A DNA stretch of 64,000 bases from Thermoplasmata archaeon (GCA_020348445.1 CP070751.1:3089702-3153701), one strand, 5' to 3'; positions 20,290-64,000 are shown, counted from the first letter of the stretch. Notes: generated by a model from the letters alone, not told the origin. Numbers and translations are program-made.

Positions 20290-20523
20290 TGTCTTACCTC
20301 CCCCCTTGAGATGCAGGTGAATTCTATTTTTCACCTATGGTCAGTTTTTGGAGTATGTACAAAGATTAACATATAAATGGTTTCACATGGATATAAACTT
20401 TGCGGAAAGAAACAGGATTTCCTATATAAATAATATAAAATTTAAATTAAAGGTCATTTGAGAATATTTTTTGGTAACGAAAATGTCCCTTAAAAGCGCC
20501 TAGGAGTTTAAATACCCAAAACC

Positions 20524-41826: not shown

Positions 41827-42675
41827 TTATGGCTTCCTCCAAGCCTGTTCCATTTCCTTGATCCATCTGAGCCTTTTATTGAGATTTGCCTCCACTTCCT
41901 CCCTTTTCTTGAAACCCTTCTCGATCAGGGCCAGTCTTTTTATAGCCACAATTATGGCATCCACTGATGGGTCGTTCAGATCTAATCCTGAGGCCTCAAA
42001 TTGTTTTCTCAATATGGGCATTGCATCATCAGGTCTGCCAAATTCCTTGCTAAAATCGGAAATTATTCTGTCAATTAGTTGGGAAAATGCGTTTATTTCT
42101 CCTTCCACTTCCCTGATTTTAACCTGTTTTATGGGAACAGAATCCCTAAATCCGATCATTCTTTTTCCTATTGCATAGAATCCTCTTTTCACATTTTCAC
42201 CACTTTTGGCACTTGTAAAGAAGAACGGCGCCTTGTATTTATCCTTAAATCTCTTCAGTTCTTTTTCACCAAATTGTGCATCCTCCTTAAGATCCCACTT
42301 ATTTGCAAGGACAACAAAAGGGACTTGGCCTACAATGTTTATCACATTTGGGATCCAATAGCTCTCCAAACTCTCTAATGTATCCTTTCTCGTGATATCT
42401 ACAACCAAAAGAACACCCGATGTCCCTGGAAGACTGGATTTATGCAGTTCTAAATATCCTTTTTGTCCTAGAATGTCCCAGATATTGAGTTTGAGATAAT
42501 GTGTATTTGCATCTCTGGTGATCTGTATGTTCCTTGATGTGATTTTAAATCCTACGGTAACCAAATATTTGTCATCGAACTTATCGACTACAAATCTTCT
42601 GATGAGGCTGGTTTTTCCCACTGCACCATCACCGAGGAGGATTACTTTCTTCTTGATTTCTGCTTCACTGTCCAT
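41827..42675 (-). CDS. Rab-like small GTPase with C-terminal helical domain (subtype A)
   Basis: G1 GDGAVGKTS, G2 T, G3 WDILGQ, G4 NKWD, G5 SAK; about 100-aa helical extension. Confidence 0.9.
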   Translation of the reverse strand: MDSEAEIKKKVILLGDGAVGKTSLIRRFVVDKFDDKYLVTVGFKITSRNIQITRDANTHYLKLNIWDILGQKGYLELHKSSLPGTSGVLLVVDITRKDTLESLESYWIPNVINIVGQVPFVVLANKWDLKEDAQFGEKELKRFKDKYKAPFFFTSAKSGENVKRGFYAIGKRMIGFRDSVPIKQVKIREVEGEINAFSQLIDRIISDFSKEFGRPDDAMPILRKQFEASGLDLNDPSVDAIIVAIKRLALIEKGFKKREEVEANLNKRLRWIKEMEQAWRKP

Positions 42676-42724
42676 ATGAACACCATTTTCGTTTGAATAT
42701 TGTTATCAATTCACTATTTCTTCT

Positions 42725-43579
42725 TCATTGGTTTTCAGTTTCCTTGATCCAGTTGAGTCTCCTTACAAGATTTGCCTCTGCAATCTCACTTTTCTTATAA
42801 CTCCCCTCAATCCTTGCCAATCTGTGAACCGCCCTTCTCAAAGCTATTCTTGATGGGGCATTGAGGTCCAGACCTGCGATTTCAAATTGTTTGCGCACCA
42901 GAGGCATAGCCTCTTCTAGATTACCATGATGCTTACAAAAATCATCAATTATTTTATCAATTAACTGGGTAATTTCGCTTTTTTCGCCTTCAAAAAGCAG
43001 ACGTGGATGAATTATCCTGTGTTTGGCGGGCCTAATTGGTTTTCCACCATTGAACTCGATCATTCTTTCTCCTAAAGCATAAAATGCCTGGTTCACATTC
43101 TCTCCATTTTTTGCACTCGTAAAATAGAAAGAAGCATTGTATTTTGACGCAAATTTTTCCAGATGTGTCTCGTCAAATTCGGCATCCTCCATTAGATCGA
43201 ATTTATTGGCCAATATTATCAAAGGTACGTTACCCACCATGTTCTGCACTTTTGGTATCCAATAGGTAGCTAAACTGAACAATGTATTCTTTCGTGTAAT
43301 ATCGGCTACCATCATTACTCCATCTGTACCCCGAAACGTGGAATGATGCAGCTTTGTGTATCCCTTCTGCCCCAAGATATCCCAAATCTGTAGCATTAGG
43401 AATATCGCTTCTTTTTCAACTGTTACCTGTATTGCCTTTCCTGTGACTTTTGTACCTATCGTAATCACATATTTATCATCGTACATGTCCAGTACGAATC
43501 TTCGAATGAGACTGGTTTTTCCAACTGCTCCATCGCCGAGCAAGATTATTTTTTTCTGAATCTCATTCATATTGCTCAT
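42725..43579 (-). CDS. Rab-like small GTPase with C-terminal helical domain (subtype A)
   Basis: GDGAVGKTS, TIG, WDILGQ, NKFD, SAK. Start moved to MSNMN (GGTGG RBS). Confidence 0.9.
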   Translation of the reverse strand: MSNMNEIQKKIILLGDGAVGKTSLIRRFVLDMYDDKYVITIGTKVTGKAIQVTVEKEAIFLMLQIWDILGQKGYTKLHHSTFRGTDGVMMVADITRKNTLFSLATYWIPKVQNMVGNVPLIILANKFDLMEDAEFDETHLEKFASKYNASFYFTSAKNGENVNQAFYALGERMIEFNGGKPIRPAKHRIIHPRLLFEGEKSEITQLIDKIIDDFCKHHGNLEEAMPLVRKQFEIAGLDLNAPSRIALRRAVHRLARIEGSYKKSEIAEANLVRRLNWIKETENQ

Positions 43580-43597
43580 TAACAAACCACCAATAAT

Positions 43598-44449
43598 CTA
43601 CTTTTTTATCTCCTCGATCCATTTGAGCCTCTTTTCGTGGTCCATCTTGGCGTCTTGCCTTTTCTTGAAGCTCATCTCAACAATCGCCAATCTATCAACG
43701 ACTCTTATTAGCGCTTCTAATGATGGATTGTTAAGATCCAACTCTGCAAGTTCGATTTGCCTTCTTATAATCGGCATTGCATCCTCTAAATCGGCATATT
43801 CCTCGCAAAAATCATCTATAATCCTATCGATAAGTCTCGTTATCTCACCTTTTTCACTTCCAAAAAGCAACCGAGGATGGATTATAGTCGGTTTTGCAAT
43901 CATTGTAGGCTCAACACGTTTGGGGCTGATAATATATGCCCCCAGTGTGTGAAATGCTTGTTTAACATTCTCACCACTTTTTGCACTTGATTGGTAGAAG
44001 GGTACCTTGTATCTTGTGGCTAGCTCCTTCAACTCATCCCTTGAAAATTCCGCTTTTTTAAGAAGATCGCACTTATTGGCCAGTATGATAAAAGGAATTT
44101 TCCCAACGATGTTTTGCATCTTAGGGATCCAATATTTTTCCAGGCTATGCAATGTTTCCTTTCTTGTGATGTCCGCCACCATGAAAACACCTGATGTCCC
44201 CCGAAAGCTGGATTTGTGAAGCTTCGAGTAACCTCTCTGTCCCAGAATATCCCATATCTGGAGTTTTAGTTTGATTAACTCATTATCCATTGGAATTTCT
44301 ATTACTTTTGCCGTGGTTTTGGTTCCAATTGTGGCGATATATTTATCGTCGAATCTATCCAAGACGAATCTCCTAATAAGGCTTGTTTTTCCTACTGCGG
44401 CCTCGCCAAGAACAAGCATCTTTTTCATCATATTCTTAACTTTCGTCAT
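43598..44449 (-). CDS. Rab-like small GTPase with C-terminal helical domain (B-like N-terminus, A-like remainder)
   Basis: GEAAVGKTS, YIATIGTKTTAK, KLQIWDILGQ, NKCD, SAK. Start moved to MTKVK. Confidence 0.9.
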   Translation of the reverse strand: MTKVKNMMKKMLVLGEAAVGKTSLIRRFVLDRFDDKYIATIGTKTTAKVIEIPMDNELIKLKLQIWDILGQRGYSKLHKSSFRGTSGVFMVADITRKETLHSLEKYWIPKMQNIVGKIPFIILANKCDLLKKAEFSRDELKELATRYKVPFYQSSAKSGENVKQAFHTLGAYIISPKRVEPTMIAKPTIIHPRLLFGSEKGEITRLIDRIIDDFCEEYADLEDAMPIIRRQIELAELDLNNPSLEALIRVVDRLAIVEMSFKKRQDAKMDHEKRLKWIEEIKK

Positions 44450-44651
44450 TTTCAATACCTTTTTGGTGATTTCTTCCTTTAGTCTGCTATACACCTAAAT
44501 ATGAGTGGACTTTTTTTCCTGCTTTTATTTCCACAATAAGGTGATATATCGGTGCAACAGTCCAATATCGTCTCCTTTTTTCTTTTATCCACCTTATATA
44601 TTCGCGATTAATTTCTAATGTCTCGATATCGATCTATTTTTATTTATCAAC

Positions 44652-45506
44652 TTATGCAATCATTCTAATCAATGATGTATAGGCTTTCTTTTCCTTTGTT
44701 AATCTAGATGCTTCTATTTGATTTGAAGCGGCATCGATTAGTAAGTCTACAACTTTTGAAAGCCCTTCAACAGTGGGAAATGCAAAGTTAACATCTGCCT
44801 TCTTGAACTGTGCCCTTATCATGGACATTGCAATATCCGGATCCTCAAGAAGATCGCAATATCTTGCCATGATTATATCTTCAACTTCCAATGCTGACAG
44901 CCTTCGCCCTGGTGTAAGTTCCACCTCCATTCCCTTCACAAATCCACCGGTGATTTCCGGTAAATGCCCCATTTTTAGTCCACTCCAGGGTGTGACCATC
45001 ATCTTACTTAGGGTCTCAAAGGCTATACTCACATTATCCCCAGTTTTTGCACTTGTGAGAAAATATGGGAAACCATAAATCCTGAGAAGCGCCATAATCT
45101 CATCCTCACTAAGCTCGGCTTCTAAATCGTTTTTATTGGCCAAAACGACCACAGGAATCTCTCCAGCAACTTTATAAAGGGACAATAACCAGGCCTCAAA
45201 TGAAAAAATGGTCTCCTTTCTTGTGATATCTATTACAATGAACGCTCCGTTAGCACCTTTGTAAGTCTTCATCTGAAGCTTGGAAAAGCACCTTAATCCC
45301 TGAATGTCCCAAATCTGAAGCTTCATGCCTACAACTTTCTCATCAATGTTGATTTGCATGGGTTTGGCAGTGGTTTTCGTTCCTATTGTTGCAACATATC
45401 TATCCTCGTACTTGTTGTATACAAATCTTCTAATTAGACTTGTTTTTCCCACTGCTCCCTCGCCAATCACACACATCTTCTTAACCATTTCCTTGGCTTC
45501 GGTCAT
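44652..45506 (-). CDS. Rab-like small GTPase with C-terminal helical domain (subtype B, switch-II Gln replaced by Leu)
   Basis: GEGAVGKTS, KLQIWDIQGL, NKND, SAK. Confidence 0.9.
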   Translation of the reverse strand: MTEAKEMVKKMCVIGEGAVGKTSLIRRFVYNKYEDRYVATIGTKTTAKPMQINIDEKVVGMKLQIWDIQGLRCFSKLQMKTYKGANGAFIVIDITRKETIFSFEAWLLSLYKVAGEIPVVVLANKNDLEAELSEDEIMALLRIYGFPYFLTSAKTGDNVSIAFETLSKMMVTPWSGLKMGHLPEITGGFVKGMEVELTPGRRLSALEVEDIIMARYCDLLEDPDIAMSMIRAQFKKADVNFAFPTVEGLSKVVDLLIDAASNQIEASRLTKEKKAYTSLIRMIA

Positions 45507-45803
45507 TTATATAACCTTCTTTTGACTTCCGATGACTCGTTACAGGGGATTAGACCAAGGGCCATCTGATTTACTTATTGTTAATTTCCCGTGATAATTT
45601 CAATGTGGTCTTCCCACCCTTTTTTCCATTAATTGTCGATATTTCAAATATTGGCTACAATTAATTATAAATCCCATTGGCCATTAAATATTTTTGACGA
45701 TAAAATCAGGTTTGATAATTATGTTGGGTATAAACTGGTATTATTGGGATAAAAAATAAAAAAGGTCACGGGTCTTTATGACCAATATATGCCTATTCGA
45801 ATG

Positions 45804-46637
45804 TTAAAAATCGAAATCCTTTATCCATTTGAGCCTTTTTACGCGATTTGTCTCTGCAATCTCCCATTCCTTGTAACCCTTCTCAATCATAGCCAATCTT
45901 TCAACAGCCAATTTTAAGGTCCCTTTCGATGGTTTGGTAAGGTCTAATTCAGCTAACTCGAATTGTTTTCTTAACAAAGGCATAGCATCTGATATGCTCC
46001 CATATTCCTTACAAAAGTCATCTATTATTTTATCAATGAGATCGGCCATCTCTCCCTTTTCGCTCTCATCCACCTCTGATTTTAAACCTAATGGTGATGC
46101 GGTACGTTTGACTTCGAGCACCCTATTTCCCAGGGCATGGAATGCATCCTTCACGTTTTCTCCATTTTTTGCACTTGTAAAAAAGAAAGGTACCATGAAT
46201 TTGGATGCGAATTTTCTCAGATCTTCCTCTTTAAATTCGGCTCTTTGGATAAGATCTGATTTGTTGGCGAGAATAACAAAGGGAACTGTTCCAACGATGT
46301 TCTTCACCTCTGGTAGCCAATAGCTCCTTATACTTTCCAATGTATCCTTCCTGGTGAGATCTGCCACCATCATAACGCCATCTGTGCCTCTGAAGCTGGA
46401 TTCATGGAGCTTTGTGTACCCTTTTTGCCCCAGTATATCCCATATCTGAAGTTTAAGATAAAATATCTCTTTTTCAGTCTCAATCTGCAAGGCCTTGGCC
46501 GTTACCTTGGAGCCAATGGTGAGGATATATTTATCATCGAACTTGTCCACAACAAATCTCCGAATAAGGCTCGTTTTACCAACGGCCCCATCACCAAGAA
46601 GTATTATTTTTTTCTGGACCTCTTTTACATCTGCCAT
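45804..46637 (-). CDS. Rab-like small GTPase with C-terminal helical domain (subtype A)
   Basis: GDGAVGKTS, KLQIWDILGQ, NKSD, SAK. Confidence 0.9.
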   Translation of the reverse strand: MADVKEVQKKIILLGDGAVGKTSLIRRFVVDKFDDKYILTIGSKVTAKALQIETEKEIFYLKLQIWDILGQKGYTKLHESSFRGTDGVMMVADLTRKDTLESIRSYWLPEVKNIVGTVPFVILANKSDLIQRAEFKEEDLRKFASKFMVPFFFTSAKNGENVKDAFHALGNRVLEVKRTASPLGLKSEVDESEKGEMADLIDKIIDDFCKEYGSISDAMPLLRKQFELAELDLTKPSKGTLKLAVERLAMIEKGYKEWEIAETNRVKRLKWIKDFDF

Positions 46638-46702
46638 GGTTAAACCGCCGAAACTTACATTTTTCCCATTTTCTGATAGTTAACTCATTTTTAGCAATAT
46701 TA

Positions 46703-47590
46703 TTATGCTTTCTCATCGTGCTTAATGGTTTCTTGTTCCTCGATCTTTTTTATCAAACTCAGGTATGTCTTGTATTCTTTGTCTAAACGAGTAGGCTCAA
46801 TACGGGCTACAGCGGCCTTCATTAAAAAATCCACCACCTTGTTAAGCCTTTGGATTGAAGGGTCCATATGAGTCAAACCCGCCCTCCTGAATTGTTCATT
46901 TATTATTGACATGGCAAATTCTGGTTCATCAAACAGATCGCAATATCTTGCCATGATAATGTTCTCCACTTCAGATACGGAGAGGGATCTTCCTGGGTGA
47001 AGCTCTGGTTCTCCATTCATCGTTTTTATTTCTTCCTTCTCTAGCATGGGCATTATATTTTTTTTCTCCCAAGGTTTTACCATCAATTCTCCCAGAGAAT
47101 GGAATGCTTCATTCACATTTTCCCCTGTCTTCGCACTTGTGAAATAACATTGAAATCCATACCTTTTAACATAATTTTTTATTTCACTTTTTTCAAATTC
47201 ACTGATTAAATCGTTCTTATTTGCAAGGACAACAACAGGAATCTCTCCAGTCTCTTTGTATAAGGATAACAGCCAGCTCCCAAGCGAATGCCAGGTACCT
47301 TTCCTCGTTTTGTCCATTACAAAGAACGCACCGTTTGCCCCTTTATACGCTTTTTTCTGAACTTTTGCAAAGCTTCTAAGACCTATGATGTCCCATATCT
47401 GAAGTTTTAAAATGATCTCTTCTTCTTTTGTTGTGATTTTCATCTTTTTTGCAGAGGTTTTAGAACCTATTGTGGCAATGTACCTATCACTAAATGTGTC
47501 AAGAACGAATCTTCTAATGAGGCTCGTTTTCCCTACCGCTGCCTCTCCAATTACACACATCTTCTTCATTACTACCTTTACTTTCGCCAT
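46703..47590 (-). CDS. Rab-like small GTPase with C-terminal helical domain (subtype B, switch-II Gln replaced by Leu)
   Basis: GEAAVGKTS, KLQIWDIIGL, NKND, SAK. Confidence 0.9.
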   Translation of the reverse strand: MAKVKVVMKKMCVIGEAAVGKTSLIRRFVLDTFSDRYIATIGSKTSAKKMKITTKEEEIILKLQIWDIIGLRSFAKVQKKAYKGANGAFFVMDKTRKGTWHSLGSWLLSLYKETGEIPVVVLANKNDLISEFEKSEIKNYVKRYGFQCYFTSAKTGENVNEAFHSLGELMVKPWEKKNIMPMLEKEEIKTMNGEPELHPGRSLSVSEVENIIMARYCDLFDEPEFAMSIINEQFRRAGLTHMDPSIQRLNKVVDFLMKAAVARIEPTRLDKEYKTYLSLIKKIEEQETIKHDEKA

Positions 47591-47796: not shown

Positions 47797-50700
47797 CTAC
47801 AGCTCAGCGAATTGCACACCACACCTGGGACAGCTTGCAGCCTCGGCATCTATATCCTTACCACATACTGGGCATTCGTAAACTTCAATCTCTATGATGT
47901 TTTCTGAATATACTTCTGAGCCATCCTCAAATGCCTCATCCTCTCCGTCTTTCCATTCGTAAAGAGATTCATCAGATTCCTCTGCGTGGGCATCAAGCCG
48001 AGGTTGATCTGGCATATCTTGGGAATCAGTATGTTTGTATCCTCTATCAGGAATTAGAGTCATGGTCAATGCCCTTATGCCCTCTAATTGGGAGATATCA
48101 CCATCCCAATCTTCTAATATGGTGCCATATTCTTTGTTGATATCTTGGAAGAACCTTCTAACACGTTTGCGAAGCTTTCGACCATAACCCTCGAATATAA
48201 CCGCTATATAGAGACATTCCGATCTTTCTATGAGGATCTTGTTTTCACCAAATCCCATCTCATCAAGTTCCCAATCAACATCTGAGGTCTGACCTGAAAA
48301 GGCATCATTAATAAAGTCCTGGACTGCGGTGAACATCCCGCTGACCACCACATCCTCTAAATCCGATCTTTCCCATCGAGAAACGTGGGCTATGGGCAAG
48401 CCATTTTCGTGGATTAAGAACGCATCGTATACAATATAACCGCTCTTTTTCCAGTAAATCGCAATTGCACCGCCAATTGCGGCGATGAGAATTGAAAATA
48501 TCCAAGGCCAGGGAAGTGTATCCCATATAGAGGGGGCTTGGGGTTTTGTACTCTTGATATCTACAATGAAGCTACTTGTAGCCACAAGTTCACCATCGGT
48601 TACTGTGATTGTTATGGTATCGATCTTTATTCCCTCAGGATACTGGAATACCAACATATTGCCGACCAAAGTTACGTAACCTTCACCTGCCGCGCTTTCA
48701 ACGGTGATTATAAGCTCGGACATATCATTATCAATATCATGGATATATTGTGAAAGATCCAATATCCATTGGTCTCCCACTTTCTTTTCCTGCGTTGGTA
48801 TGAGACCTATTGTAGGTGGATCATTTACAGGGACAACCACCACAAGTATACTATCCTCGGCCAAAGCCCCATGCGGGTCTGTCGCCCTGAATGTAATGAC
48901 CTCTGAGCCGTACCAATTTTCAGGTGCACTGAAATCCACGGTTAGATCCTTATTGATCGTTACATTGATGAATTTTGAGCCGTTTGTGTAGTACAGAACA
49001 TCGTTGTCCACATCAAAGAAATAGTCGCTTAATGTAAAGGTCCCATTCAGATTCGTATCCTCATCAAAGAATACATCAGGGATTTTATATCTGAGCTCAG
49101 GTGGAAAATCATCCGAAATTGTGATATTTATCTCCTGGGAAGCTGTCAACAAACCATCGGATACATAAATCGTTATAGGTATTGTGGTGCTGTTCATCCA
49201 TTCAGGATAGGTGATAACTATCCCTAAGTTGTTGTTTTGTTGTAACCTGATGTAATCCGTCAATTCAGAGGTACTTACCATTAATTCATCTGGAGTATTG
49301 TCAGGATCTGAAATATATGGCGATAGGTCAAAAGCATAGGAATAATCGAAATGTACAACCAGGTCAGGTATATCTGATATGGTTGGACCATCATTCACTG
49401 GTATGACTGTAACCCTTATGGTATCCTCTGAAATGGCTCCAATGGGATCCTGTGCTCTAAATGTCACATATTCTGTACCTGTCCATTGTCCCTGGGCTGT
49501 TATGTCCACCGTGTTATTCTGGTTTATATCCACAATGATATGGAAGTAGCCTGATGTGAAGAATAAACTATCATGATCCTTATCAACAAAATAATCGTCC
49601 AGGTCAAAGACATAATAAAGTGTAGTATTTTCTTCGAGAATAACATCTGGTAATTGACTTACAAGCTCAGGAACCCAATCGGAGGTGACATTGACCCTTA
49701 CCATGGTTTGAGTGGTGTCAGTGCCATCAGATAAAGTCAGAGTGACAAGAACGCTTTGGCCAACCATATTCTGTGGGTAGTGGAAGGTCACCTTGAGACC
49801 ATCCACTTCGACATAACCATCTCCTGAGTCTGACGTTGACTCTGATGTTGTGAGGATTAGGTTCTCTATCGGAGTCTCAACATCGTGAACATAGAAAGTG
49901 TAATCCCATGGACTTGGATTATCTTCATCTGTGTTTGGATCATCGTAATGAACAAAGATATCAGGAGGCATGGGATTGAAATAGGGTAGATCATTGAGGG
50001 GTGTAATATTGATCCATAATATCTGGGAATCCCTATCACCGCTGCTATCAACGAGCCATAATGTAACCTCATCATTACCATAGGCATCTGGATGCGGGAT
50101 AAACGTTAATATATTGTTTGTGCTGTTCATGCCTGTAACTGAGTAGAGATCGTTATCTACTCCTGTTAGATGCCAATTTAAATCAGTATCAGAATCCTCT
50201 ATGTCAGACCCATAGGATGTGAGAGCAATTGACCAAGGCAAGCTGTCTTCGGGCTTGATTTGATTGGGAACCTCCCACACTATCATCGGAGGTCTGTTTC
50301 CGGTATCTTGCACCGTCAGTAATCCTTCTATTTCATCGACATTATAATTCGCAGAGCCTTCATATTTTGCCCAAATACCGTAATTTTCAGGGGTTAGATT
50401 GACATAATAATTTATTTGTGCAACACCGCCCAAGGAGGTTGCGGCCATTACGATCTCCTCACTGGGCTCGTAGAATTCGTTTCTATTCCTATCAAGGTAA
50501 AAGACAACTTGCTGATCCCCAATTGGATTACCCATATCGTCTATCAGGGTTGCATTTATTGACGCTGTTTCTCCAACCTCCACAACAGTGATTACAGATT
50601 TAAGAGTGGCCTGTTTTGGATTTATTGTTATTTGTGCTTCGTCATCTTCGATATCGTAATCCCCTGATCCAACATATAACACAGTAAAATTGTAAATACC

Positions 50701-53700
50701 TATGTCCAGATATGAGGAATAAATCACCGATATACTTCCATCAGATTGTGTTACACCCTGATCCACAAACTCTCCTGCTTCAAGAATCCCATTTTTGTTG
50801 ATATCTATATAATAAGCAACATTTTGGCCTTGAATTGGCTGGAAGTCATCATCCAGTAACCTAGAATTGAGCTGTATCGCATCACTGAATTCTACCAAGC
50901 TGTCAATGGCATATAGAATCCCGTGTTTTGGCGAGACATTCGGGCTATTTATCGTTGATGTATCCGGCGCCCACAATCCCATTGAATCGTTGGATGCATA
51001 ATGGAAAGAATAATTGGCTGCAGATAATGTCATGTTATAATAGTATTCCTTACCATCAGTGTAATCAGAATCTGACGTATTTGCCTCCATCATATGAAAA
51101 ACTCCAAGTCCTGTTATGTTTAAGATGATTGCATCAGGTGGATGGTCTTCTAAATCTGTATAGGTGACAGTGAAGTTAAAGATTGTATCAATAGAGCCTG
51201 TTGTTGGATCAACCTGCGCCAAAGATAGTATTGGGGCTCTATTCACAACATCGAATTGCATAACACCGGTTTCAGTCCATTGGCCAACTGAATCGTTAGC
51301 AGTAAAGGAGAACGTATATTGCCCAACGTCAAATCCAGATAGATTGATGTAATATTCCTTGCCATCAGTGTACTCCACATCCAATAGATCCATCTCGATT
51401 AAATCATATATTCCCACCCCGGTAATGTTCACGGTTATAGTATCCTGAGAATGGTTATCAAAGTCAGAATATGTGACTGTAAAATTGAACCACGACTCGA
51501 TATAACCGGTGTTTTGATCCACCATAGCCGCAGATAAAATCGGAGCCCTATTGATAACATCGAACTGTAAGATAGTGCTTTCTGTCCAGTTCCCAAGGGA
51601 ATCATTTGCAGCGAAATTGAAGAAATGAGTTCCAAGTGAAAATCCTGACATATTGTAATAATATCCTTTGCCATCTGTGTAATCGGTATCCAAGAAATCG
51701 GTTTCTTCTAGAATATAAATTCCAATCCCTGAAATATTTACCGTGATTCTACCAGGTGTATGATCATCCAAATCCGTGTATATTACGGTGAAATTGAAAT
51801 CAGAATCCAGATAGCCTAAGGTTGGAGTTACCAAAGGAACTGAAAGGCTTGGCGGCCTGTTAAGCACATTAAATCCCAAAAGACCGGTCTCAACCCAGTC
51901 TCCTTTAGTATCATTTGCCGCGAAATTAAAAGTAAACGATCCTATTGTGAATCCTGAGGCATTGTAATAATATTCCTTACCATCTGTATAATCTGTATCC
52001 AAGGAATCTACTTCCCCGAGATCATAGACACCATAGCCTGTTATGTTCACTGTTATTTTATTTGGAGCTTGATCGTCAAGATCCTGATAAATAATCGAGA
52101 AATTGAAACCAGAGTTGATATTTCCCGAATTGGGTGCAACCTGCGGGGAAGTAAATGTGGGAGGTCTATTTAATATATTGAACTGATTGGTTTCACTGAC
52201 CACGCTGTTACCAATTGAATCATTTGTTTCGAAATAAAATTGATATGTACGAATGGTGAAACCAGAGGTATTGAAGTAATATTCTTTTCCATCTGTGTAA
52301 TCCGAGTCGAATGGATCAACTTCCATAAGATCAAAGGTTCCAAAGCTGGAAATAACCACTGTTATGTTTACTGGTGGTAAATTTGCAGGGCTTGCGTAAT
52401 TTACAGTGAAGTTGAAACCAGTATCTACATTACCGATTAAGGGATTGACAGATGGTAATGTAAGAGAAAGGGCACTGGAGAGTATATCAAAGGAGGAGGA
52501 GCCAGTTTCAACCCAGATTCCATTGGTATCATTTGCTGCAAAGTGGAAGAAATGGGTCCCTAAAGTGAATCCGGACTGATTTAGATAGAATCCATTTCCG
52601 TCGGTATAATCCATATCTAATGGGTCAATTGGAATAAGATCATAATTTCCCCATCCTGTGATATTAACTAAAATATTGTCAGGTTCTAGGTTATTGGGGC
52701 TAGTATATTTTACTGTAAAGTTGAATCCTGTATTGGGATAACCAGAGGACGGGTTGACTGAATCTGAGGAAAGTAATGGGGTCGAGTCAAGAACATCGAA
52801 AAATAACGTTCCTCCTTCAACCCAGTCCCCTATTGTGTCGTTTGCCGCAAAGTGGAATGAATAGGTACCTATGGAAAATCCTGATGTATTGTAGTAGTAT
52901 TCCTTACCATCAGTATAATCTAAATCAAGAGGATCGAGTTCTGATAAATCATAAACACCCTCACCTGAAATATTCACCATTACATTGTAAGGTGCATGGT
53001 CATCCAAATCTGTGTATATCACAGTGAAATTGAATCCTGTATCTGTGTATCCAATAACTGGATCTACCGAAGAAGAAGATAATGTTGGTAACCTGTTAAC
53101 AATCACGAACTGGTAAATAGCAGTATTGGTCCAGTTTCCTATGGTATCATTGGCCCAAATGAGATATTGATAAAGGCCGGGTATTACATACATTGAATTA
53201 TTGTACCATTGGTTGCCAGCTCCTTCTGTCATTGAGGCATTGGTGTAACCGCCATCAGGATATGTAATGTTTAGCCAAACTCCGTATATTCCACTTGGGG
53301 CCGTCACATTGCATGATATGTTAACATATTCATCGATGTACTGACTCTCTGGGGTGGTCAAAATATCTGTAATCTCAAAAGGAATTGATATTGTAAAGGT
53401 CAAAATGTATGTCTTTCCTGCATCGATTCCCCCATCATCGTTTGCTGGTGCACCTACGATTATATCATCTTGGTCATCTCCATTTACATCCCCTGCAAAG
53501 GAAACAGACCAGCCGAAATGATCATTTGCATATTCTCCATAATATTTCCAATCTGCAAGGTTGTCCATGGATGATCCACCACTGAAAACATAAATTGCTC
53601 CAACATCCAATTTGGCACCGTCATCGTAATATGGAGCCCCGACCATAACATCAGCTACTGCGTCCCCGTTTAAGTCTCCTGCGCTTTTCACCGAGAATCC

Positions 53701-56700
53701 GAATCTATCTCCATGATTTTCTCCTGTGAGTTTTAAATCGGATGTGGCATCCATGGAGGACCCACCATTAAAAATATAGGCCCTTCCCACAGTAGGTGGT
53801 TCAAGCTTTTGTATGTAGATATCGATATCAGAAGCACCGTTTCTATCATCTCCCCAACCGACATACATATGTCCATCTGAATCCACATCCAGTCTTGGCA
53901 TTATCTGGTTTGATGATGCTCCCCCTTCGTTCACTTTTATGTCAGAAGAGTCCCATTGTGCTGTGCCTGATGAGTTATATTTTTGGGAATAAATATCTCC
54001 CAACCCATTTCTGTAATCGCTCCAAACAAAAATCGGGTTCCCTTCGGGATCAACATCCACCCAGGGATCCAACTGATGGTAAGTGTCTGAGTTCTGTTTT
54101 GCATCCTTATCAGAGGGACCCCATAGGGCAGTTCCCATTGAATCGAGTCTCTGTGCAAAGGTATCATAATCACCTGCACCGTTTCGGGCGTCCTCCCATA
54201 TAACATATGCATTTCCATCTGAGTCCGTTGCCACTTCGGGACTGTATTGGACTGCACTATCAGAGTTCTGGTTAACAAGTATATCGGTGTTTCCCCATAT
54301 TGCATTACCATCTGGATCAAGCTGCTGTGCATAAATATCCGCAATGTCACCTGGACTGTTTCTTTCGTCAAACCATACATAGATAGAGCTTCCGTTTGGA
54401 TAAACAGCCGCAGAAACCGAAAATTGGTCATAGCTATCTGAATTCTGGTTGATTAATTTGTCATTTAAACCCCATTGTGGTGCTCCATCGGAATCAAGTT
54501 TTTGTGCATATAAATCTCCATCCGACCCGCGCCAATCACCAAAGGCAACAATGACATTGTCGTCTGAGTCAATAGTTGCATCGGGATTGTACTGATCTGC
54601 AATGTCTGAGTTCTGATTTACTTTTTTATCAGAAAGGCCCCATAAAGGAAGCCCATTGGGGTCGAGTTTCTGGGCATAGATATCTGATTCTCCATTTCGT
54701 TTATCTTCCCATACAATAATCGCATTTCCCAAAGAATCGACAACAACAACAGGATCCAACTGATCTACGCTATCCGAGTTTTTATTGACTCTTATATCAG
54801 TTGGGCCCCACAATGCATTACCATCGCTGTCAAACTTTTGGGCATAAATGTCGTAATCATCGCTTCCATTTCTTGTGTCGTGCCAGACAACAATTACATT
54901 TCCATGGTAATCCGCGGCAATAAAGGTTGCGTTCTGATATGCACTATCTGGATTCTGGTTTGCCTGAATGTCTAAAGGACCCCAGGCAGCGGAATAGTTA
55001 CCGTGATTATCATTGTATTCAGGAGCTCCCACAATGACATCATTATATCGGTCATTATTCAGATCCCCAGCATTTGAAACCGAGTAACCGAACTCATCAT
55101 TTGGACTTTCACCTATAAGCATCGTATCGGCATCTGAGGCATTGATAGATGAAGGTAGGTATTCAATGTTAAGGAATACGTAAGCCGCTCCGGTACTGCT
55201 GTTGTTCCCAGGTGCCCCAATGATAATATCGGTTGAGCCATCACCATTTAAATCACCAGCATCAGATACAGCCCATCCAAATCGATCATCTGAATGAGAG
55301 CCAATCATGATTACATCCGCATTTTGAGCTGATATTCCTCCAGTTAATCCAGATCTCCCAGAAAATATGTATGCCCTCCCCTGCTTTCCATTATAACCAT
55401 ATGCGCCAACAATAACATTATCGTAATTATTTACATTAAAAGATTCCTCGTTGCCTAATGTGTAAGAAGAACTAGGATCGTTCTGATTGTTGTATGAAGC
55501 ATCAATCCAGTCCCATGAACGTGCAACATTGGAGATTCTGACTTCATCTATTATACCATCGAATTCTCCCCAACTCCCATTTCCAATTGTCACAGAAGTC
55601 TGTCCAGTCAATTCAACTGCACCCAACAGTATGGTGCTATTTAAACATTCTCCATCCCAATAGATACAAACTCTCTTTGCATTATCATCGTATGTACCCG
55701 CAATATGATGCCACTCTCCAGAGGAAAATGTAATTGTTTCAATCTCACAAAGATAAGCACCCCCATCATCCTGGGAGTCATGAACAACATACATATTGTT
55801 GTTACTATGTTTTGCTATGAAGAATTTCCGCGAAACACCATTATACCATTCTATTACAGTATGGAGAACCCCATCATCCCAATTAAAGTCTGGTTTAATC
55901 CAAGCCATAAAAGTTCTTGAGCCATCCATCGCCATACTTGAGGTTTCAATATAATCATCATCTCCACCGAACTCATCCGCGCCATCTATTCTACCAGTAG
56001 CATCGGTGGTTCCATCACCGCCATCCTGGAAGTTTTTGGGAGTGCCATCGTTATCGTTGCTAGTAGAATCTATGTGGCCTTCCACATCATCATTGGGGCT
56101 CTCTTCCAAATGATGAACCATCTTGTAATTATCATCCCAGACGCTCTCTGGATTCTCCGTGGGAGAGCGCTGAGCGTTGTTACCATAATACATGTAGACG
56201 ACTGTATCGAAGGAGGAAGAAAGATAAGGAATCCTAACCCAAGCCACAAGCTTACCTGAAGAACTATTGTAGCTCTCGATTTCGTGATCTAGCTTTGTTC
56301 TTCCATCTAATTCTGTAAACAAAATATCATTTCCGTTAGGCAGAGCTTTGGATTTTAAATCGGAATCGGTAATCCTGATAAGGAATGGGAAATCTGTAAG
56401 ATTTCCTGCAACTTGTGAAGAGCTGATGGTAATGGGTTTACGATATAGCCAACATGCAGGGTTGAGCTCCTCGGAACCTATCGAATAAAATGTACCTGTA
56501 TCGTTCTGGTTGTTGTACTGAGTAGCGATCCAGTCAATTGAACGAACAACGTTAGAGATTCGGACTTCATCTATTGAACCGTTGAAATATGCACCACTCA
56601 TTCCTATTTTAATTTCATTGGTATTTGAATATATTGTGGTTGAGCCTACTTCCTCAATGTCTTCTAACTCACCATTCACATATACTCTCAAATATCTTCC

Positions 56701-59700
56701 GTCGAATGTGCCTAGAACATGCACCCATTCATCGGCAGTTATGTAAACATCTGATGCATGGGTACCTCCTGTCCAGTCCCCAGTATCGTTGTATATTCCA
56801 AAGCACCATGCATCATCCCAGCCATTCCATCCAAGAAGCCAGGCGCCAGGTTTTTGATTTCCTCCGAACCATTGATTGGGCTCCTCTGTATGATCCTCAT
56901 TACAATTAAACCATCCCTCAACAGTAATAACCTCAGTGATATCCAAGTTCGAGGAATAAGCCACGTCAACATGATCGTCACTACCATCAAACTCATCAGC
57001 ACCATCTATCTTTCCAGAAGCGTTCTGGGTTCCCGGTGAATCGATGTACTCTATTCCATTATTCAAATACTTAGTAGAGTCGTAATGGATTCCAGAGGTT
57101 TCATGAAGGTGTTGAACCATTACATAACTATCATCCCATACTCCCTCGATATTTTCTGTTGGAGAAGTTTGAGCGCTGTTTCCATAATGCATGTAAATTG
57201 TGGTTGTGGAAGATGAGGAAAGGAAGGGAATCCTCACCCATGCTGCCAATTCACCAGAACTGGCATTGTAGCTCTCGATTTCATGATCAAGTCTTGTCCT
57301 TCCATCCTGCTCTGTAAAGACAATATCATAACCGTCGGGTCGAGCTCTGTTTTTAAGGTCCAAATCCACGGTATTCACAAGAATCGGGAAATCAGTTAGG
57401 TCTCCGGTTATTTTGGAAGTATTGAGTGTAATTGCTTTTCTGTACATCCAATTCTGGGGGAAAGATTCTTCGGCACCAACTGTGTAAAATGTACCTGTGT
57501 CGTTTTGGTTGTTGTATTCGGTTGCGACCCAGTGGCTGGAACGGGCAACGCTTGAGATTCTGACTTCATCAATTGTGCCGTTAAAAAGCCATTTAGCTTG
57601 GCCTGATCCAGATTCGTTAAAAGCACCAATCCATCCATTTCCTGTATTTGAAAAATCAACTCCCGAGATGCTGTCATTAAAGGAAAAGTTACCTGCTAAA
57701 TCTCCATTATGATAAACCCTTAATGTTCCATTCGCACCTTCTGTTCTGTCTATAATCCAGCTAATCATATACCAGCTATCTTTTGTAAAATCGATTCCAT
57801 TATCAAGAGAACCTGATGCCCTATATATACTTCCCCCAATCACCGAATAAAATTGCATAGCATCTTCGTCTCTTAATCTAAAGTAAAAACGATTATTATC
57901 ATCTTGTACTTTAGAATAGAGTATATTATCCCAGAATTGGCTATCATCTAATTCCTTTGGATAAATCCATGCGTTTAATGAAAAACCCACGGCATTACCA
58001 ATATTCAAGCTTGTATCATCTCCACAATCAACGTAATCATCATCTCCACCAAACTCATCCGCGCCATCTATTCTACCGGTAGCATCGGTGGTTCCATCAC
58101 CACTATCCTGAAAGTTTTTAGGAGTGCCTTCATTATGATTAATGGTAGAATCATAATGGCCTTCAACATCGTCATCAGGACTTTCTTCTAAATGCTGGAC
58201 CATAACATAATTATCGTCCCAAACACCTGTTGGATTCTCGGTGGAGGAAGATTGGCCTCTGTTTCCGTAATGCAAATATATGATTGTATCCAAAGTGGAC
58301 GAAAGTTCGGGGATCCTTACCCAAGCTGTTAATTCCCCGGTTGTGCCATCATGTTTCTCAATCTCGTGATCAAGTCTAGTCTTACCATCACTTTCAGTGA
58401 AAATGATATCATACCCATCTGTTCTTGCTTTGTTTTTTAGATCTGAGTCGGTAATATCTATAAGAATAGGGAAATCGGTAAGATCTCCAGTTACTTGGGA
58501 AGAATTAATGATGATAGATTTGCGGTATTGCCAATTGGTAGGTATGATTTCCTCATCACCGATTGTGTAAAAAGAGCTTGAATCATTCTGGTTCTTGTAT
58601 GAGGTAGTTATCCAATCCAAAGACCGAGTAATATTTGAAATACGGACTTCATCTATTGAGCCCTTCCACTGATCAGATATTTCAAATCTAACTCCTAAAA
58701 ACAAGTCACTGCCAGCATTTAGTCCCCCGTCTGTCGTCCCAGAATCTTTCACAGCACCATCAACAAATAATACCCAGGAAGAATCATTTGAAGCAAATGT
58801 GATATAACTCCATGCATCCAGAGTAATGGATCCCAGAGCTTCTACTATTTCATCATTGTCAATGCCTGAATTAAATACATGGAGGTTTGTAATGGGATCT
58901 CCAGATTCAAATCTGAAATTACCATTCCCAAATGAAAATGGATTATCCCATGTAGTTCCATCTGAAGCTGTATTGACCCAGAGGGAAAATGTAAGGTTCT
59001 TTTTACTATTCAATGTAGTTCCGATACTATTAATTTTGACGTAATCATCACTCCCATCAAACTCATCAGCACCATCTATCTTTCCAACGGCATCCTGTGT
59101 TCCAGGAGAGTCTATGTACTCGATTCCATCGTAATTATATTGCGTAGAGTCATAATGAGTTCCGGATTTCTCTTGTAAGTGCTGGACCATTACATAATTA
59201 TCATCCCAAACACCCCTTGGATTTGATTGTTCTGGTGCATCCAAGTTGCTGTAATGCATGTAAAAAACCGTGTTTGAGGAGGAACTTAGCAAGGGAATCT
59301 TCACCCAGGCAACCAGTTCACCCATACTGCCATTATAACTTTCTATCTCATGATCGAGCTTGGTAACACCATCTGCACCTGTAAAAACGATATCATAACC
59401 GTCGGAACGCGCCTTGCTTATAAGATCAGAATCAGTAAGGTTTATTAGAACCGGAAAATCTTTCAGATCACCGGCCACTTGAGCGGCGTTGATTGTGATT
59501 CTCTTGCGATACTGCCAACCCGTGGGATTGATTTCTTCTAAACCAACCATATAAAATGAATTTATGCCGTTCTGGTTGTTGTATTCAGTATCGAGCCAGG
59601 CGTTGGATCTAGCAACAGAGGATATACGCACCTCATCTAGAATGCCATCAAGGGGCTTCCAAAGGCTTCCCGGATTGAGCCCAAGGTATATATCCCAATC

Positions 59701-62700
59701 GTTTTCTCGTATTTTACCTGTTTTTGTGGTGTTACCCATTTCAGTTTGGTCAAGGCGCAATCTCATGTAACTACCATCGTAGGTGGCAACTACGAATAAC
59801 CATTTATCTGTGGTCAAGGAACTGTTTGTTTCCATATATGTTGTTGTGCCTGAGTCATCGTTCGTTCCTGTCTTTAACCTGAATCTCAGCTTGTAACCGG
59901 TAATGTTCCATATTGTAGACAACATCCATGCATGATCTTGCTCAGCGTCATTTTTTGCCTTTGATATGATTCTAGCATCGTGTGCAATAAAACTTTCAAA
60001 CATAACCCACGCCTGGAGTGTAAGCCCTTGTCCTTGTACATTCCAATTACCCACATCTATATGGTCTGTTCCGTCATCGTACTCAAAGTCCTGACCATCG
60101 GCTATGATACTGTTGTTATCATCGGATCCTAGGTTCGTTCCATCGTGATTATTGCTTGTGGAATCATAAAAATCATCAGAAAGATGCCAGACAGCTGAAT
60201 AATTGGAATCCCAGACATCTGCAGGATTTTCCATGGATGTTGTTTGTCCATTGTTTCCGTAATACATGTATATGGATGTATCTGAGGATGAAGAAAGGCT
60301 GGGAATTTTAATCCATGCTACCAATTCACCCTGACTGCTGCTATATTTCTCGAGTTCGTGATCGAGTCGAGTACTGCCATCCATCTCGGTGAAGAAGATG
60401 TCATATCCATCGGCTCGTGCCTTGCTTTGTAGATCAGAATCAACAGTATTTATTAGAACTGGGAAATTGACTAGGTCACCAGCAACCTGCGAGGCATTGA
60501 TCGTGATTTTCTTTCGATATAGCCAATCTTCGATATTTATATCGGGGGCATTTACACCCTTTATGCTCGAAACAGAAAATCCGAACCTGTCTCCATCGTT
60601 CTCCCCAGTGAGAATAACATCCGCATCTGCGTCAGCGTCATAAACACTGTTCCAGTCTTCTGTGGATCTACCATGAAAGATATACGCTCTTCCGCGATCT
60701 GCACCCCATCCAGGTGCTCCTATGATCACATCATCATAATCATCATTATTTATATCACCAGCATCGGAAACGGACCAGCCAAATAGATCGCCAGAATTGG
60801 AGCCATATATCGTGACATTTGCATCCGTAATATCGAGTGCACTTGCATTTATTTCTGGATAACCAAAGAAAATGTAGGCTGCGCCTGCCTTATTTATCGC
60901 CCCAGCCCCAGAATCAATCACTTCTTCACCACTATATGTTATGAAACTATCATTCATTGAAAGATATTGGGCGTAAATCCAGTCTTCAGAACGAGCTATA
61001 TTTGATATGCGGACTTCATCTATTGTACCGTTCCAATATACATCTCCACCAGAAGCACCTCCAGGCCTACCTATCCAAAGGTTTTTACTTGGATTAGGAT
61101 TTATTGATCCACCAAAATCACAATCAGCCCTCTTCACTCCATCTACATACATAGAACCATTAGGAGAATCCCAAGTAAAAACAACATGATGCCAAGTATT
61201 TGGATTAATTACATATGTATTACTACAAAGACTTTCATTATATGTCGAACTATTTCGAAGGTAAGCTGATGCAGTGCCTATATTATTTGTATGTCTATAA
61301 ACAATTAGGCCATAACCTCCTGTTAAACGATTGTATTTGTTTATCACATTATATCTCTTGATTTGCGTTGGGAAATTACCATATATCCAAGCTTCCATTG
61401 TTATCTCAGTCCCAGTAATATTCAAACTCGCATCATTCCCACAATCAATATAATCATCGATCCCATCCAACTCGTCAGCACCATCTATTTTTCCAGTAGC
61501 ATCCTGCGTCCCAGGAGAATCTATATACTCTGTTCCATCGTTATCATATTGTGTTGAATCATAATGAGTTCCCGAGGTCTCTTCTAAATGCTGAACCAAC
61601 ACATAACTAGCATCATAAGTCTCATTCTCATTTTGAACATCTAAAGCGGCTGAGTTATTGTAATACATCCAGATGTAATCGGTAGAGGTGTCCCCGGCAA
61701 TATTTGTTACATTTACCCAGACATAACTGTCCCCAGAGGTATTCCACTCTTCGATATGATAATTCAACTCAGTTACATTATCAGTATCTACAAACCGCAG
61801 GTCTGTTCCATCCAATTTAGCCTTTGAATAATTAAAATTCGCTGGATTTAACTTCACAGAAACCGGAAAATACTCTAGATCTTCTGATTGCCCGCCGTTG
61901 TCAAAGGTCAATTTCATTCGACATGACCAATTGATATCCCACCAATCGCTTTCTTCTTCGCTTCCGTATGTAATAAAGCTGTTATTCATGGAAAGGTACT
62001 GCGCCATAACCCAGTCCGCACTTCTTCCTGTATTCGAGATTCGCACTTCATCTATTATGCCCTCAAAGGCGTCGTAATAGGTACCGTCTCCGATCCATAC
62101 CTCAGTTGCTGATTGATATATTGGCCCGGAAAATGTGTCGTTGGTTCCTATCACAATTGCATTTTTATACAATACCATTGTGGTTCCATTCCACGTTCCT
62201 GCCATGTACTGCCACTGGTTTTTATCCACAACATTGGAGTCATGTATATTTCCTTGCGTCGCAGTTCCGTTGTCACTAAGCTTAAAATCCCAATCATCGA
62301 GATCCCCCGGATCATCGTCCATTGAAAGAATATAGGACCTGGCACTATCTGCAAACTTGTTAACGATATTCAGATCATCACCAGGATTATCGATATTAAC
62401 TGGCTTAACCCATGCTTCAATGGTTATAGCCTGGGTAATGTTCAGACTGTCACTTGTTTTGCAGTTCACATAATCGTCGACTCCATCGAAATTGTCGGCA
62501 CCACCGATTCTTCCCTGTGCATTCTGGGTTAATCCGTTTTGGGGGAAACCGTCATTGTTGTTTTTCGAGGCATCATAATGGGTTCCCGAGGTCTCGTTCA
62601 GATGCCATACCCCTGAAAAGTGCTCATCGTAAGTCCCTTCTACATCCTGGACATCAACGGCATCTAAATTGCCGTAATACATCCAGATATAATCCGAATC

Positions 62701-63249: not shown

Positions 63250-63479
63250 TTTACGGCCTCGACCATCTAAATGCCCTGATGGGAGTTTAGACACATTTAC
63301 AAGTATTTGATATCCTTGACCCGCATAAGGACACATTTACCCATGCCCTTGTATTCTTTATTTTATAACTATGTACATTATACGAATCTAACAGTAATTA
63401 AATGGTTTTGACAAGAAAATCAGATTTGATTACCTAATCTGAGAAAAACGGCATTTGATGGGAAAATCCCTCCTTTCCC

Positions 63480-64000
63480 TTAAGTATTGAGATTGGCATC
63501 AAATCTTACCCCACAACCGGGGCAGCATGTGCTTTGACCCTTCACATTTTCACCACATATGGGGCATTCAAAGGATTTTGGGCCTTTCAAATCAAGGAAC
63601 TCAACACCGCATTTTGGACAGGATATCGCATCTTCCCTGACTTCATCTCCACAGGAAGGGCATACCATGACTCTAATCCTCAACCTCCAAGGCACCTTTC
63701 CAGATTCACCAAATTCCACCTCACACCTTGAACACCTTGGATCTCCAGGATAGATTTCATTACCGCATACTGGGCACTCGTATACTTCCATCTCAGCCCC
63801 GACATCAACAGGAGTTATCTCCCCAAAGTTATCTAAAAACATTTTGGATTTATCCCCTTCCAAATTAACTGCACTTGGTTGATCCATCAAACCATGGTCA
63901 ATATCCCCTTTCAGAGTTCCCCATCGTGTATGTTTTTCTTCCTTCCCTGATATCAAACTCCCCATCAATATTGGAATACCCTTTAATTGAGCCATACCCC
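63480..64000 (-). CDS. Protein (probably a C-terminal fragment) with three CPxCG..CPxC zinc ribbons
   Basis: EVYECPVCG..CSRC, CPSCG..CPKC, CPICG..CPGC. The frame is open to the window edge, so the start may lie outside. Confidence 0.75.
   Translation of the reverse strand, partial: GMAQLKGIPILMGSLISGKEEKHTRWGTLKGDIDHGLMDQPSAVNLEGDKSKMFLDNFGEITPVDVGAEMEVYECPVCGNEIYPGDPRCSRCEVEFGESGKVPWRLRIRVMVCPSCGDEVREDAISCPKCGVEFLDLKGPKSFECPICGENVKGQSTCCPGCGVRFDANLNT

Follow-up and report, generated by a model that had tools for sequence, protein, structure and literature searches.

We analysed a 64,000-nucleotide stretch of DNA from a Thermoplasmata archaeon (GCA_020348445.1 CP070751.1:3089702-3153701), hereafter called the window, in which positions 41,827 to 47,590 carry a tandem array of six small GTPase genes, directly downstream of the gene of a giant surface protein of 5179 aa and on the same strand. 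This report deals with the array, with the C-terminal domain (CTD) of its products, and with a domain, called T, which lies in the tail of the giant. A sequence-only reading of this DNA had described six consecutive co-oriented genes of about 280 aa, and such they are: the genes are real, all six lie on the minus strand and they encode proteins of 277-298 aa. It had also proposed a multi-switch signalling module, which is plausible. It had overlooked the CTD, the copies in which the catalytic Gln is changed to Leu and the giants upstream with their predicted longin tails, and it is because of these features that the array gains a context.

Six GTPases with an additional helical domain

In the order of transcription, the genes of the array are the following, all on the minus strand: GTPase 1 (46703..47590, type B, 295 aa; CTD at 46706-46993; motif G3 DIIGL), GTPase 2 (45804..46637, type A, 277 aa; CTD at 45807-46064; G3 DILGQ), which is the copy modelled with AF2 (AlphaFold2), GTPase 3 (44652..45506, type B, 284 aa; CTD at 44655-44909; G3 DIQGL), GTPase 4 (43598..44494, type A, 298 aa as listed; CTD at 43601-43858), GTPase 5 (42725..43585, type A, 286 aa; CTD at 42728-42988) and GTPase 6 (41827..42675, 282 aa, the most divergent member of type A; CTD at 41830-42102). 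Each protein is made of a Ras-family G domain followed by the CTD. The listed GTG start of GTPase 4 is probably 15 codons too far upstream, and the listed TTG start of GTPase 5 is probably 2 codons too far upstream. Taken in pairs, the six copies are 60-76% identical in DNA and 34-63% identical in protein. This means that the array is made of old paralogues and is not a collapsed or duplicated artefact of the assembly.

The G domain takes up only about 175 aa of each protein, the last 90 aa or so forming a separate domain. All six proteins match the Ras family of Pfam (PF00071) over residues 10-173 approximately, with E values from 5.6e-30 to 1.4e-38 and scores of 104-132 bits (the gathering cut-off is 21.6), and the GTPases are above the cut-off of TIGR00231 small_GTP in NCBIfam. 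The motifs G1 to G5, previously said to be intact, are so in the six copies: GxxxVGKT, the Thr of switch I, DxxG, NKxD and SAK are all present in the alignment. The catalytic Gln after DxxG (the position of Gln61 in Ras) is found in four of the six, GTPases 1 and 3 having Leu instead. The strings likened to Rab motifs are also as described. The exact RabF2 motif KLQIW is carried by GTPases 1, 2, 3 and 4, its position being occupied by KLNIW in GTPase 6 and by MLQIW in GTPase 5; SFRGT or YKGA and V(A/I/M)D(I/L/K)T resemble RabF4 and RabF5, GTPase 6 being divergent (SLPGT); and the C-terminal Cys prenylation motif is absent, none of the six copies having a Cys in its last 12 residues. The place of this motif is occupied in the six GTPases by the helical domain of about 90 aa.

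The RabF motifs of Pereira-Leal and Seabra reportedly read IGVDF (F1), KLQIW (F2), RFRSIT (F3), YYRGA (F4) and LVYDIT (F5). The full set is not found here: F1 is reduced to TIG, F3 is absent (KGYTKLH), and F4 and F5 (VADIT or VIDIT) are similar only. Since RabF1 and RabF3 are absent, as is the prenylation motif, the GTPases of the array are outside Rab in the strict sense. As far as the ranking of sequence similarities goes, the earlier view of them as Rab-like appears sound, the top sequence matches in the PDB being Rabs (Rab11, Rab1, Rab35, a Thorarchaeota Rab (7ezb) and Ypt7). The best 47 of these matches consist of 46 Rab, Ypt or Sec4 proteins and one Thorarchaeota Rab, and the first non-Rab, RhoA, comes at rank 48. 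Some members of the family are already labelled "Rab family GTPase" in the NCBI annotation, and the best 120 homologues of the GTPases are all close Thermoplasmata relatives.

Membership in other families was considered and ruled out. For Roco, the score of the Roc model (85-94 bits) stays under that of Ras in all copies, COR and LRR gave no match, and the proteins have fewer than 300 aa. For Rag/Gtr, the Gtr1_RagA model reaches no more than 22-31 bits, where Ras has above 100, and the CTD has four helices without any beta sheet. The ArvA family consists of an Arf-like or PF01926-annotated GTPase followed by ArvB (DUF2073) and ArvC (DUF2072) (Mills et al. 2024, PMC10927574). It was discarded as well: the Arf and MMR_HSR1 scores of the six GTPases are far below those of Ras, and neither DUF2073 nor DUF2072 was found in the immediate neighbours examined, namely the giant, an MscS-like channel, the aspartyl-tRNA synthetase (AspRS) and an 821-aa FG-GAP protein.

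For the CTD we found no match in Pfam or NCBIfam, even at E 10, and no significant one among the PDB sequences. In the model of GTPase 2 (AF2; mean predicted local distance difference test, or pLDDT, of 88) it appears as four helices at residues 196-274, after a low-confidence linker at residues 184-188. Judging from this model, the CTD is a separate helical domain, a four-helix bundle on a flexible linker. When its profile was searched against 1.84 billion representative proteins, only 301 members were retrieved at E up to 1e-3, and in nearly all of them the CTD lies at the end of a protein of about 265-300 aa or in an open reading frame (ORF) of 60-220 aa, which is a stand-alone CTD or a gene fragment. 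The domain occurs only in this GTPase family or as stand-alone proteins of about 90-135 aa. Two larger ORFs, in L005 (513 aa) and L004 (343 aa), were considered as fusions and look rather like upstream read-through of the ORF calling. The structural neighbours of the CTD in the Atlas are two archaeal Ras-family clusters and otherwise nothing informative. P0245, a CTD-bearing protein, has no match in Pfam. Rare variants of the family are L038:8554-10194 and P0230; one variant protein with G domain and CTD carries at its N-terminus a hydrophobic membrane anchor of two helices, together with a linker rich in Ser, Thr and Pro, and another has an N-terminal extension of about 165 aa without any Pfam match.

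Types A and B are two old, well-supported clades, which are found side by side in three genomes. GTPases 2, 4, 5 and 6 form type A, with DILGQ as G3, and GTPases 1 and 3 belong to type B, in which Leu replaces the catalytic Gln. The type B subclade has seven members from three genomes, and each of them has Leu, Val or Ala at this position. This shows that the loss of Gln is maintained and is not a matter of decay. Ras proteins of the Q61L type hydrolyse GTP slowly unless a partner supplies a residue. For each of the six copies of the window there is a separate orthologue in a congener; hence, the array is older than the species.

The whole genome contains 18 genes which combine a G domain with a CTD (denoted G+CTD below), 3 stand-alone CTD genes and 16 stand-alone Rab-like GTPases of about 180-220 aa, so that its Rab-like GTPases number about 34. 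On a tree built from the G domain only, the CTD-bearing GTPases cluster together strongly (7 label changes, against 51 in shuffles). In the five genomes of the genus we counted 21, 18, 15, 12 and 6 CTD matches; the one further genome of the order has 9, and genomes elsewhere in the class that carry the CTD have 1-8. The lineage-specific expansion which had been proposed is therefore to be retained at the level of the genus or order, where it is older than the species, but not for the family as a whole, which is class-wide (77 of 151 genomes).

Starting from the giant and following transcription, the gaps between successive genes measure 206, 65, 297, 157, 12 and 49 nt. The intergenic distances of about 200-300 nt given earlier are correct for two of them (206 and 297 nt) and not for the others (157, 65, 49 and 12 nt). 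TATA-like AT-rich strings can be seen in the three long gaps, and a terminator-like hairpin followed by a run of T (45764..45783, minus strand) is predicted just after GTPase 2, where it probably ends a first transcription unit made of a B and an A gene. The sizes of the gaps, together with this hairpin after the second gene, suggest the units B-A, then B, then A-A-A (or B-A-A-A). No promoter or operator motif shared by the upstream gaps was found. The string ATTGAAAT is present in two long gaps; with 13 occurrences window-wide against 9.4 expected, it is not enriched. A scan for bacterial-type promoters, the model of which is not applicable to archaea, gave 21 matches for 18.2 expected, that is, the level of chance.

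The host is a Thermoplasmata archaeon, in agreement with the non-Asgard origin supposed by the sequence-only reading: its AspRS is 85-89% identical to those of four genomes of the same GTDB genus, the best 80 relatives of the six proteins are all in metagenome-assembled genomes (MAGs) of Thermoplasmata or Thermoplasmatota, and actin was not found. The congeners include Methanomassiliicoccales archaeon bin396 (CP070739) and an uncultured Thermoplasmata archaeon MAG. In both of them AspRS adjoins the array, made of 3 genes in bin396 and of 8 or more in the other MAG, and this synteny excludes a local chimera. The genome is one contig of 5.16 Mb which looks closed, with a completeness of only 82% and a contamination of 3.8% (CheckM-type estimates); the congeners have 2.3-3.7 Mb, and most other sampled members of the class 1-3 Mb. 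The G+C content of the array, 0.38-0.39, is below that of its flanks, 0.44. The flanking genes are housekeeping ones (AspRS, riboflavin and purine synthesis), and between the array and AspRS there is a gene for an MscS-type mechanosensitive channel (40881-41720, minus strand).

The T domain and its association with the GTPases

The giant which precedes the array (47797..63336, minus strand) has an N-terminal signal or transmembrane segment (aa 38-56), an ectodomain with 7 Laminin_G_3 domains, 7 DUF2341 domains, FG-GAP repeats and Ig-like domains, one C-terminal transmembrane helix (aa 4941-4962; 48451..48516, minus strand; hydropathy 1.82 over 19 aa) and a cytoplasmic tail of about 215 aa. T makes up the first 135 residues or so of this tail, directly after the helix (aa 4963-5100; 48037..48450, minus strand). 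An acidic linker and a C-terminal zinc ribbon (CPxC...CPxC; 47815..47880, minus strand) come after it, the match to Zn_Ribbon_1 (E 5e-4) being below the Pfam cut-off. The next gene upstream encodes a second giant of 2376 aa, cut by the edge of the window, in which only its C-terminal end with a double zinc ribbon is included (63480..64000, minus strand); this protein carries T at aa 2090-2224. T recurs in 19 ORFs of the genome.

The T domain of the window has no match in Pfam at E up to 10, and the T profile gave nothing significant against the PDB sequences. Its model (AF2, pLDDT 83.5) follows the order beta-beta-alpha-beta-beta-beta-alpha. With Foldseek, every match at E <=1e-3 is in the longin/Roadblock superfamily (Asgard Roadblock, AP sigma, LAMTOR/MP1-p14, MglB, Mon1-Ccz1, TRAPP and Sec22). 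An exhaustive structural search (VIA-align) gave Z 13.1 for chain 7q3d_C of the human CPLANE complex, 11.8 for the longin of VAMP7, 11.7 for Mon1-Ccz1, 11.0 for MglB and 10.9 for Asgard Roadblock, TRAPP and Sec22 also having Z >=10. As modelled, the T tail is a domain of the longin/Roadblock fold. Of 36 T domains, 5 touch Robl_LC7 (PF03259) and 4 touch Fuz_longin_1 (PF19036), all at sub-threshold values (best E 0.035), and these are the only Pfam families which recur among the members of T. The Atlas features of a short T protein point to Asgard (Promethearchaeota) clusters with a score below 0.9, which is a lead only.

As to the context of T, 40 of 57 domains end the protein after a hydrophobic helix, and most of the others are inserted in STAND ATPases of the AAA_16-TPR kind, which also adjoin G+CTD genes. 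T is found in giants and in STAND proteins, both beside GTPases; hence, it is the common denominator of two kinds of sensor-like proteins and of the GTPases. A third architecture is that of a 1178-aa ORF of the window (16798-20334, minus strand), with T at aa 260-392, no transmembrane helix before T, and SAP DNA-binding motifs near aa 860-900. Outside the window, the genome has six G+CTD paralogues with Arg at the position of the catalytic Gln (WD(I/L/V)(I/L/M)GR; C1:18225-26649, 5009757-5010629 and 5073501-5085919). Three of these six adjoin STAND-like proteins of about 940-980 aa; a T domain lies near aa 100-275 in these proteins, and their relatives from other MAGs belong to the AAA_16-TPR ATPases.

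Within the genome, 7 of the 19 T genes lie at most 1 kb from a GTPase or CTD gene, for 0.84 expected and a maximum of 6 in 2000 placements. Seen from the side of the GTPases, a T gene is present within 6 kb of 14 of the 18 G+CTD genes, against 2 of the 16 stand-alone GTPases. About 20 loci of other MAGs, which cover many GTDB families, have the T gene immediately upstream of a G+CTD gene. The layout of giant then array is found again in bin396 (L053), where the giant is 61% identical over 1635 aa. We considered whether the tail is better conserved than the ectodomain, and this is not clearly so: T is 67% identical to its counterpart, and the figure of 61% for the bin396 giant includes ectodomain.

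We then come to the class as a whole, sampled with 151 genomes, related genomes not being independent samples. Rab-like GTPases are present in 108 of them, T in 102 and the CTD in 77, and the nesting is strict: all genomes with the CTD have T, and all genomes with T have the GTPase. Two large families, f6 (0 of 16) and f18 (0 of 12), have neither GTPase, nor T, nor CTD. The domains have also diversified together. For 27 T domains, the distances correlate with the distances between the neighbouring G domains (r 0.88) and between the CTDs (r 0.84), and none of 2000 permutations gave values as high; as a reference, the correlation between G and CTD within one polypeptide (r 0.90) is only slightly above that between T and G. 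Two loci outside the window contain in addition a V4R protein and represent a second flavour of the module: at C1:4117783-4124200 (plus strand) a CTD protein of 113 aa, a T-tailed surface protein of 1635 aa, a Rab-like GTPase of 182 aa and the V4R protein follow one another in this order, and at C1:2657441-2670355 (minus strand) the V4R gene lies between a T-bearing giant of 3915 aa and a GTPase of 208 aa. A relation of V4R to TRAPP Bet3 is assumed here and serves as no more than a lead.

Interpretation of the locus

The best reading of the locus, which we hold to be somewhat probable, is that several GTPase switches are coupled to a longin platform anchored in the membrane. The six paralogous two-domain GTPases would be one arm of a Thermoplasmata-wide module, and T would be the other. 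Longin/Roadblock domains act in a GEF- or GAP-like manner (as guanine nucleotide exchange factors or GTPase-activating proteins) on Rab, Rag and MglA. The T tail, anchored in the membrane, would likewise dock the GTPases and regulate them in a GEF- or GAP-like manner, so that their nucleotide state would be coupled to the state of the adhesin-like ectodomain. The CTD, in place of the prenylated tail of Rab, may be a piece for docking, pairing or output. The four Gln copies would hydrolyse GTP, and the two Leu copies would be slow or would need a residue supplied in trans, which would give switches with different lifetimes. What the analysis itself establishes is the reality of the genes, their domain content, the folds, the lineage of the host, the conservation of the neighbourhood, and the joint occurrence and diversification of the domains. 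We infer in this scheme the binding of T to the GTPases, its role as GEF or GAP, the direction of the signalling and its output. A more specific picture, which we put forward tentatively, is that of an outside-in device: an integrin-like or lectin-like giant, with the longin of its tail as a ligand-controlled exchange factor, would act on a Rab-like bank in which some members are locked on, the CTD serving for docking or output.

Several observations weigh against the coupling of platform and switches. Within 1 kb of 12 of the 19 T genes of the genome there is no GTPase, and within 6 kb of 4 of the 18 G+CTD genes there is no T gene. Co-inheritance of linked genes alone can yield both a correlation of distances and a co-occurrence. 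The scores of the T fold (Z 10-13, template modelling score 0.45-0.65) indicate a fold in common and not a function, and the longin/Roadblock fold also serves in roles unrelated to GTPases, such as SNARE regulation and dynein light chains. No effector or output of the array was identified. Finally, the MscS-type gene is absent from the corresponding place in one congener (L001), where AspRS comes directly after the last GTPase gene; the locus is hence not rigidly conserved.

The same pairing could also work from the inside out, the GTPases steering the export, positioning, clustering, shedding or vesicle packaging of the giants by way of their longin tails, in the way in which Rab and Arf mark cargo and membranes or MglA positions adhesion complexes. 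All the linkage evidence cited for the coupled platform applies equally to this cargo control, and the partners are very large secreted proteins which need handling. Many Thermoplasmata have no rigid cell wall, so that a remodelling of the surface is plausible. We also count in its favour that ArvA, an unrelated small GTPase, drives vesicle formation in Haloferax (PMC10927574). However, T is also present in cytoplasmic STAND-TPR proteins beside G+CTD genes, which are sensors and not cargo, and no gene seen in the neighbourhood encodes a coat, a tether or a SNARE-like protein; we regard this explanation as unlikely. It is quite unlikely, in our opinion, that the array is autonomous, with giants that are unrelated to it and adjacent only as a by-product of gene order, a CTD that pairs type B with type A in the manner of Rag/Gtr, and soluble effectors. 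The order B, A, B, A, A, A with a terminator-like site after the first B-A pair speaks for this, as does the persistence of the two old clades side by side in three genomes, and other lineages have G+CTD genes directly followed by a GTPase of about 180 aa, with no T nearby (L005-L008, L017, L018, L024, L025, L028). Such an autonomy leaves unexplained the nested co-occurrence, the repeated order of T then G+CTD and the co-diversification of T and G, and the CTD is predicted to be helical, not Roadblock-like as in Rag.

A role in defence against viruses, or as cargo of a mobile element, with STAND sensors and GTPases and with the giants as receptors or decoys, is very improbable. It is suggested by the T-bearing STAND AAA_16-TPR proteins which adjoin related G+CTD genes and by an AbiEii/OLD-like ATPase about 20 kb away in the window. 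Yet neither the GTPases nor the tail matched anything in PADLOC, the locus contains no effector gene such as a nuclease or a protease and is flanked by housekeeping genes, and its synteny is kept in congeners, with no integrase or repeat borders seen. The idea that the array is an artefact, from Asgard contamination, chimerism of the contig or misassembly of a repeat, could appeal to the low G+C content of the array and to the figures for completeness and contamination. We find it hardly credible, as it has against it the single contig of 5.16 Mb, the synteny of AspRS and array in two independently assembled congeners, the divergence of the copies in DNA, each having its own orthologue elsewhere, and the fact that all best relatives are Thermoplasmatota.

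Known systems and further features of the window

A full-text search of the literature on the topic found no description of the subfamily, of the CTD or of the longin-tailed giants. Where Ras- and Rab-like GTPases occur in large sets with longin/Roadblock partners, this is taken to be a hallmark of Asgard archaea and a step on the way to the membrane traffic of eukaryotes. Here a non-Asgard genome has about 34 Rab-like GTPases, 18 of them in a two-domain subfamily which is genetically wired to longin domains on giants and on STAND sensors. The eukaryote-style pairing of Rab-like GTPases with the longin/Roadblock fold exists outside Asgard archaea too. Should the coupling be physical, this would be a simpler, receptor-linked partnership of GTPase and longin, testable with soluble domains, and it would bear on whether the partnership predates the Asgard-eukaryote lineage or evolved in parallel to it. 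If the outside-in picture is true, the partnership of longin-type GEF and Rab would be no Asgard or eukaryotic invention but an older archaeal principle, which Thermoplasmata would have elaborated independently, a single genome reaching about 34 GTPases and 19 sensors with a longin. The natural variants from Gln to Leu, kept by selection, may inform on how switches are tuned without classical GAPs.

The Rab- and Ras-like GTPases of Asgard archaea (Tran et al. 2024, PMC10933270) resemble those of the array by their canonical G1-G5 and by Rab-like strings of beta3 and switch II, and the Thorarchaeota Rab 7ezb matches an array GTPase with E 7.9e-26. Further points of likeness are the expanded paralogues in one genome and the presence of longin/Roadblock-fold proteins, Asgard Roadblock structures being among the best fold matches of T. 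What differs is the host, the extra four-helix CTD of the array GTPases, and the longin itself, which is here no small soluble protein but forms the tail of giant single-pass surface proteins or is inserted in STAND ATPases. The comparison with eukaryotic Rab and its longin GEFs (Mon1-Ccz1, TRAPP, CPLANE Fuzzy-Inturned, DENN) is similar. Rab11, Rab1, Rab35 and Ypt7 are the best matches of the G domain, and the model of T superposes over its whole length on 7q3d_C and on the longins of Mon1-Ccz1 and TRAPP (Z 11-13). By analogy, the common logic would be that of a GTPase with a membrane-associated longin platform. However, the prenylation Cys, RabF1 and RabF3 are absent from the array GTPases, and the eukaryotic longin GEFs are heterodimers of soluble subunits, in place of which we have a single longin on the tail of a receptor.

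With MglA-MglB of Myxococcus and Thermus the array shares a small GTPase genetically coupled to a regulator of Roadblock fold, MglB being itself among the structural matches of T. According to Wuichet and Sogaard-Andersen (2015, PMC4316618), G3 is non-canonical in MglA, and MglB is genetically coupled to it. In the array DxxG is canonical, which argues against Group 1 MglA, and the partner is membrane-tethered with a predicted longin topology. The same authors call Rup, by default, any prokaryotic Ras-like GTPase which is neither MglA nor Roco (PMC4316618), and the array GTPases would default to Rup in their scheme. Group 1 Rup proteins have no G3 Gln, which recalls the type B copies; their neighbours are a coiled-coil protein, an OmpA-domain membrane protein, and a diguanylate cyclase or histidine kinase (PMC4316618). 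Such neighbours are not seen at the array, and the CTD is not described for Rup. Lastly, Rag/Gtr with Ragulator has in common with the array a G domain followed by a C-terminal non-GTPase domain, two old paralogue types kept together and a docking on a membrane-anchored Roadblock scaffold, which here would be the T tail, LAMTOR and MP1-p14 being among the matches of its fold. It differs in that the C-terminal domain of the array GTPases is modelled as a four-helix bundle and not a Roadblock domain, and in that the score of Gtr1_RagA is far below that of Ras.

Finally we must note some other genes of the window. Beyond AspRS, positions 36822-39287 (minus strand) encode an 821-aa surface-type protein with FG-GAP_3 repeats and a Big_7 Ig domain, in which no T domain was detected. 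The ATPase found about 20 kb from the array (20524-21915, minus strand, 463 aa, AAA_15/AAA_21) matches PD-T4-4_A, NsnB, AriA, Old and GajA, with E down to 8e-21, and is a candidate OLD/Gabija-like defence ATPase. At 31250-34628 (plus strand), a gene for a MoxR/ChlI-like AAA ATPase is followed by that of a 622-aa protein with a VWA domain, which is the usual pairing of MoxR and VWA.

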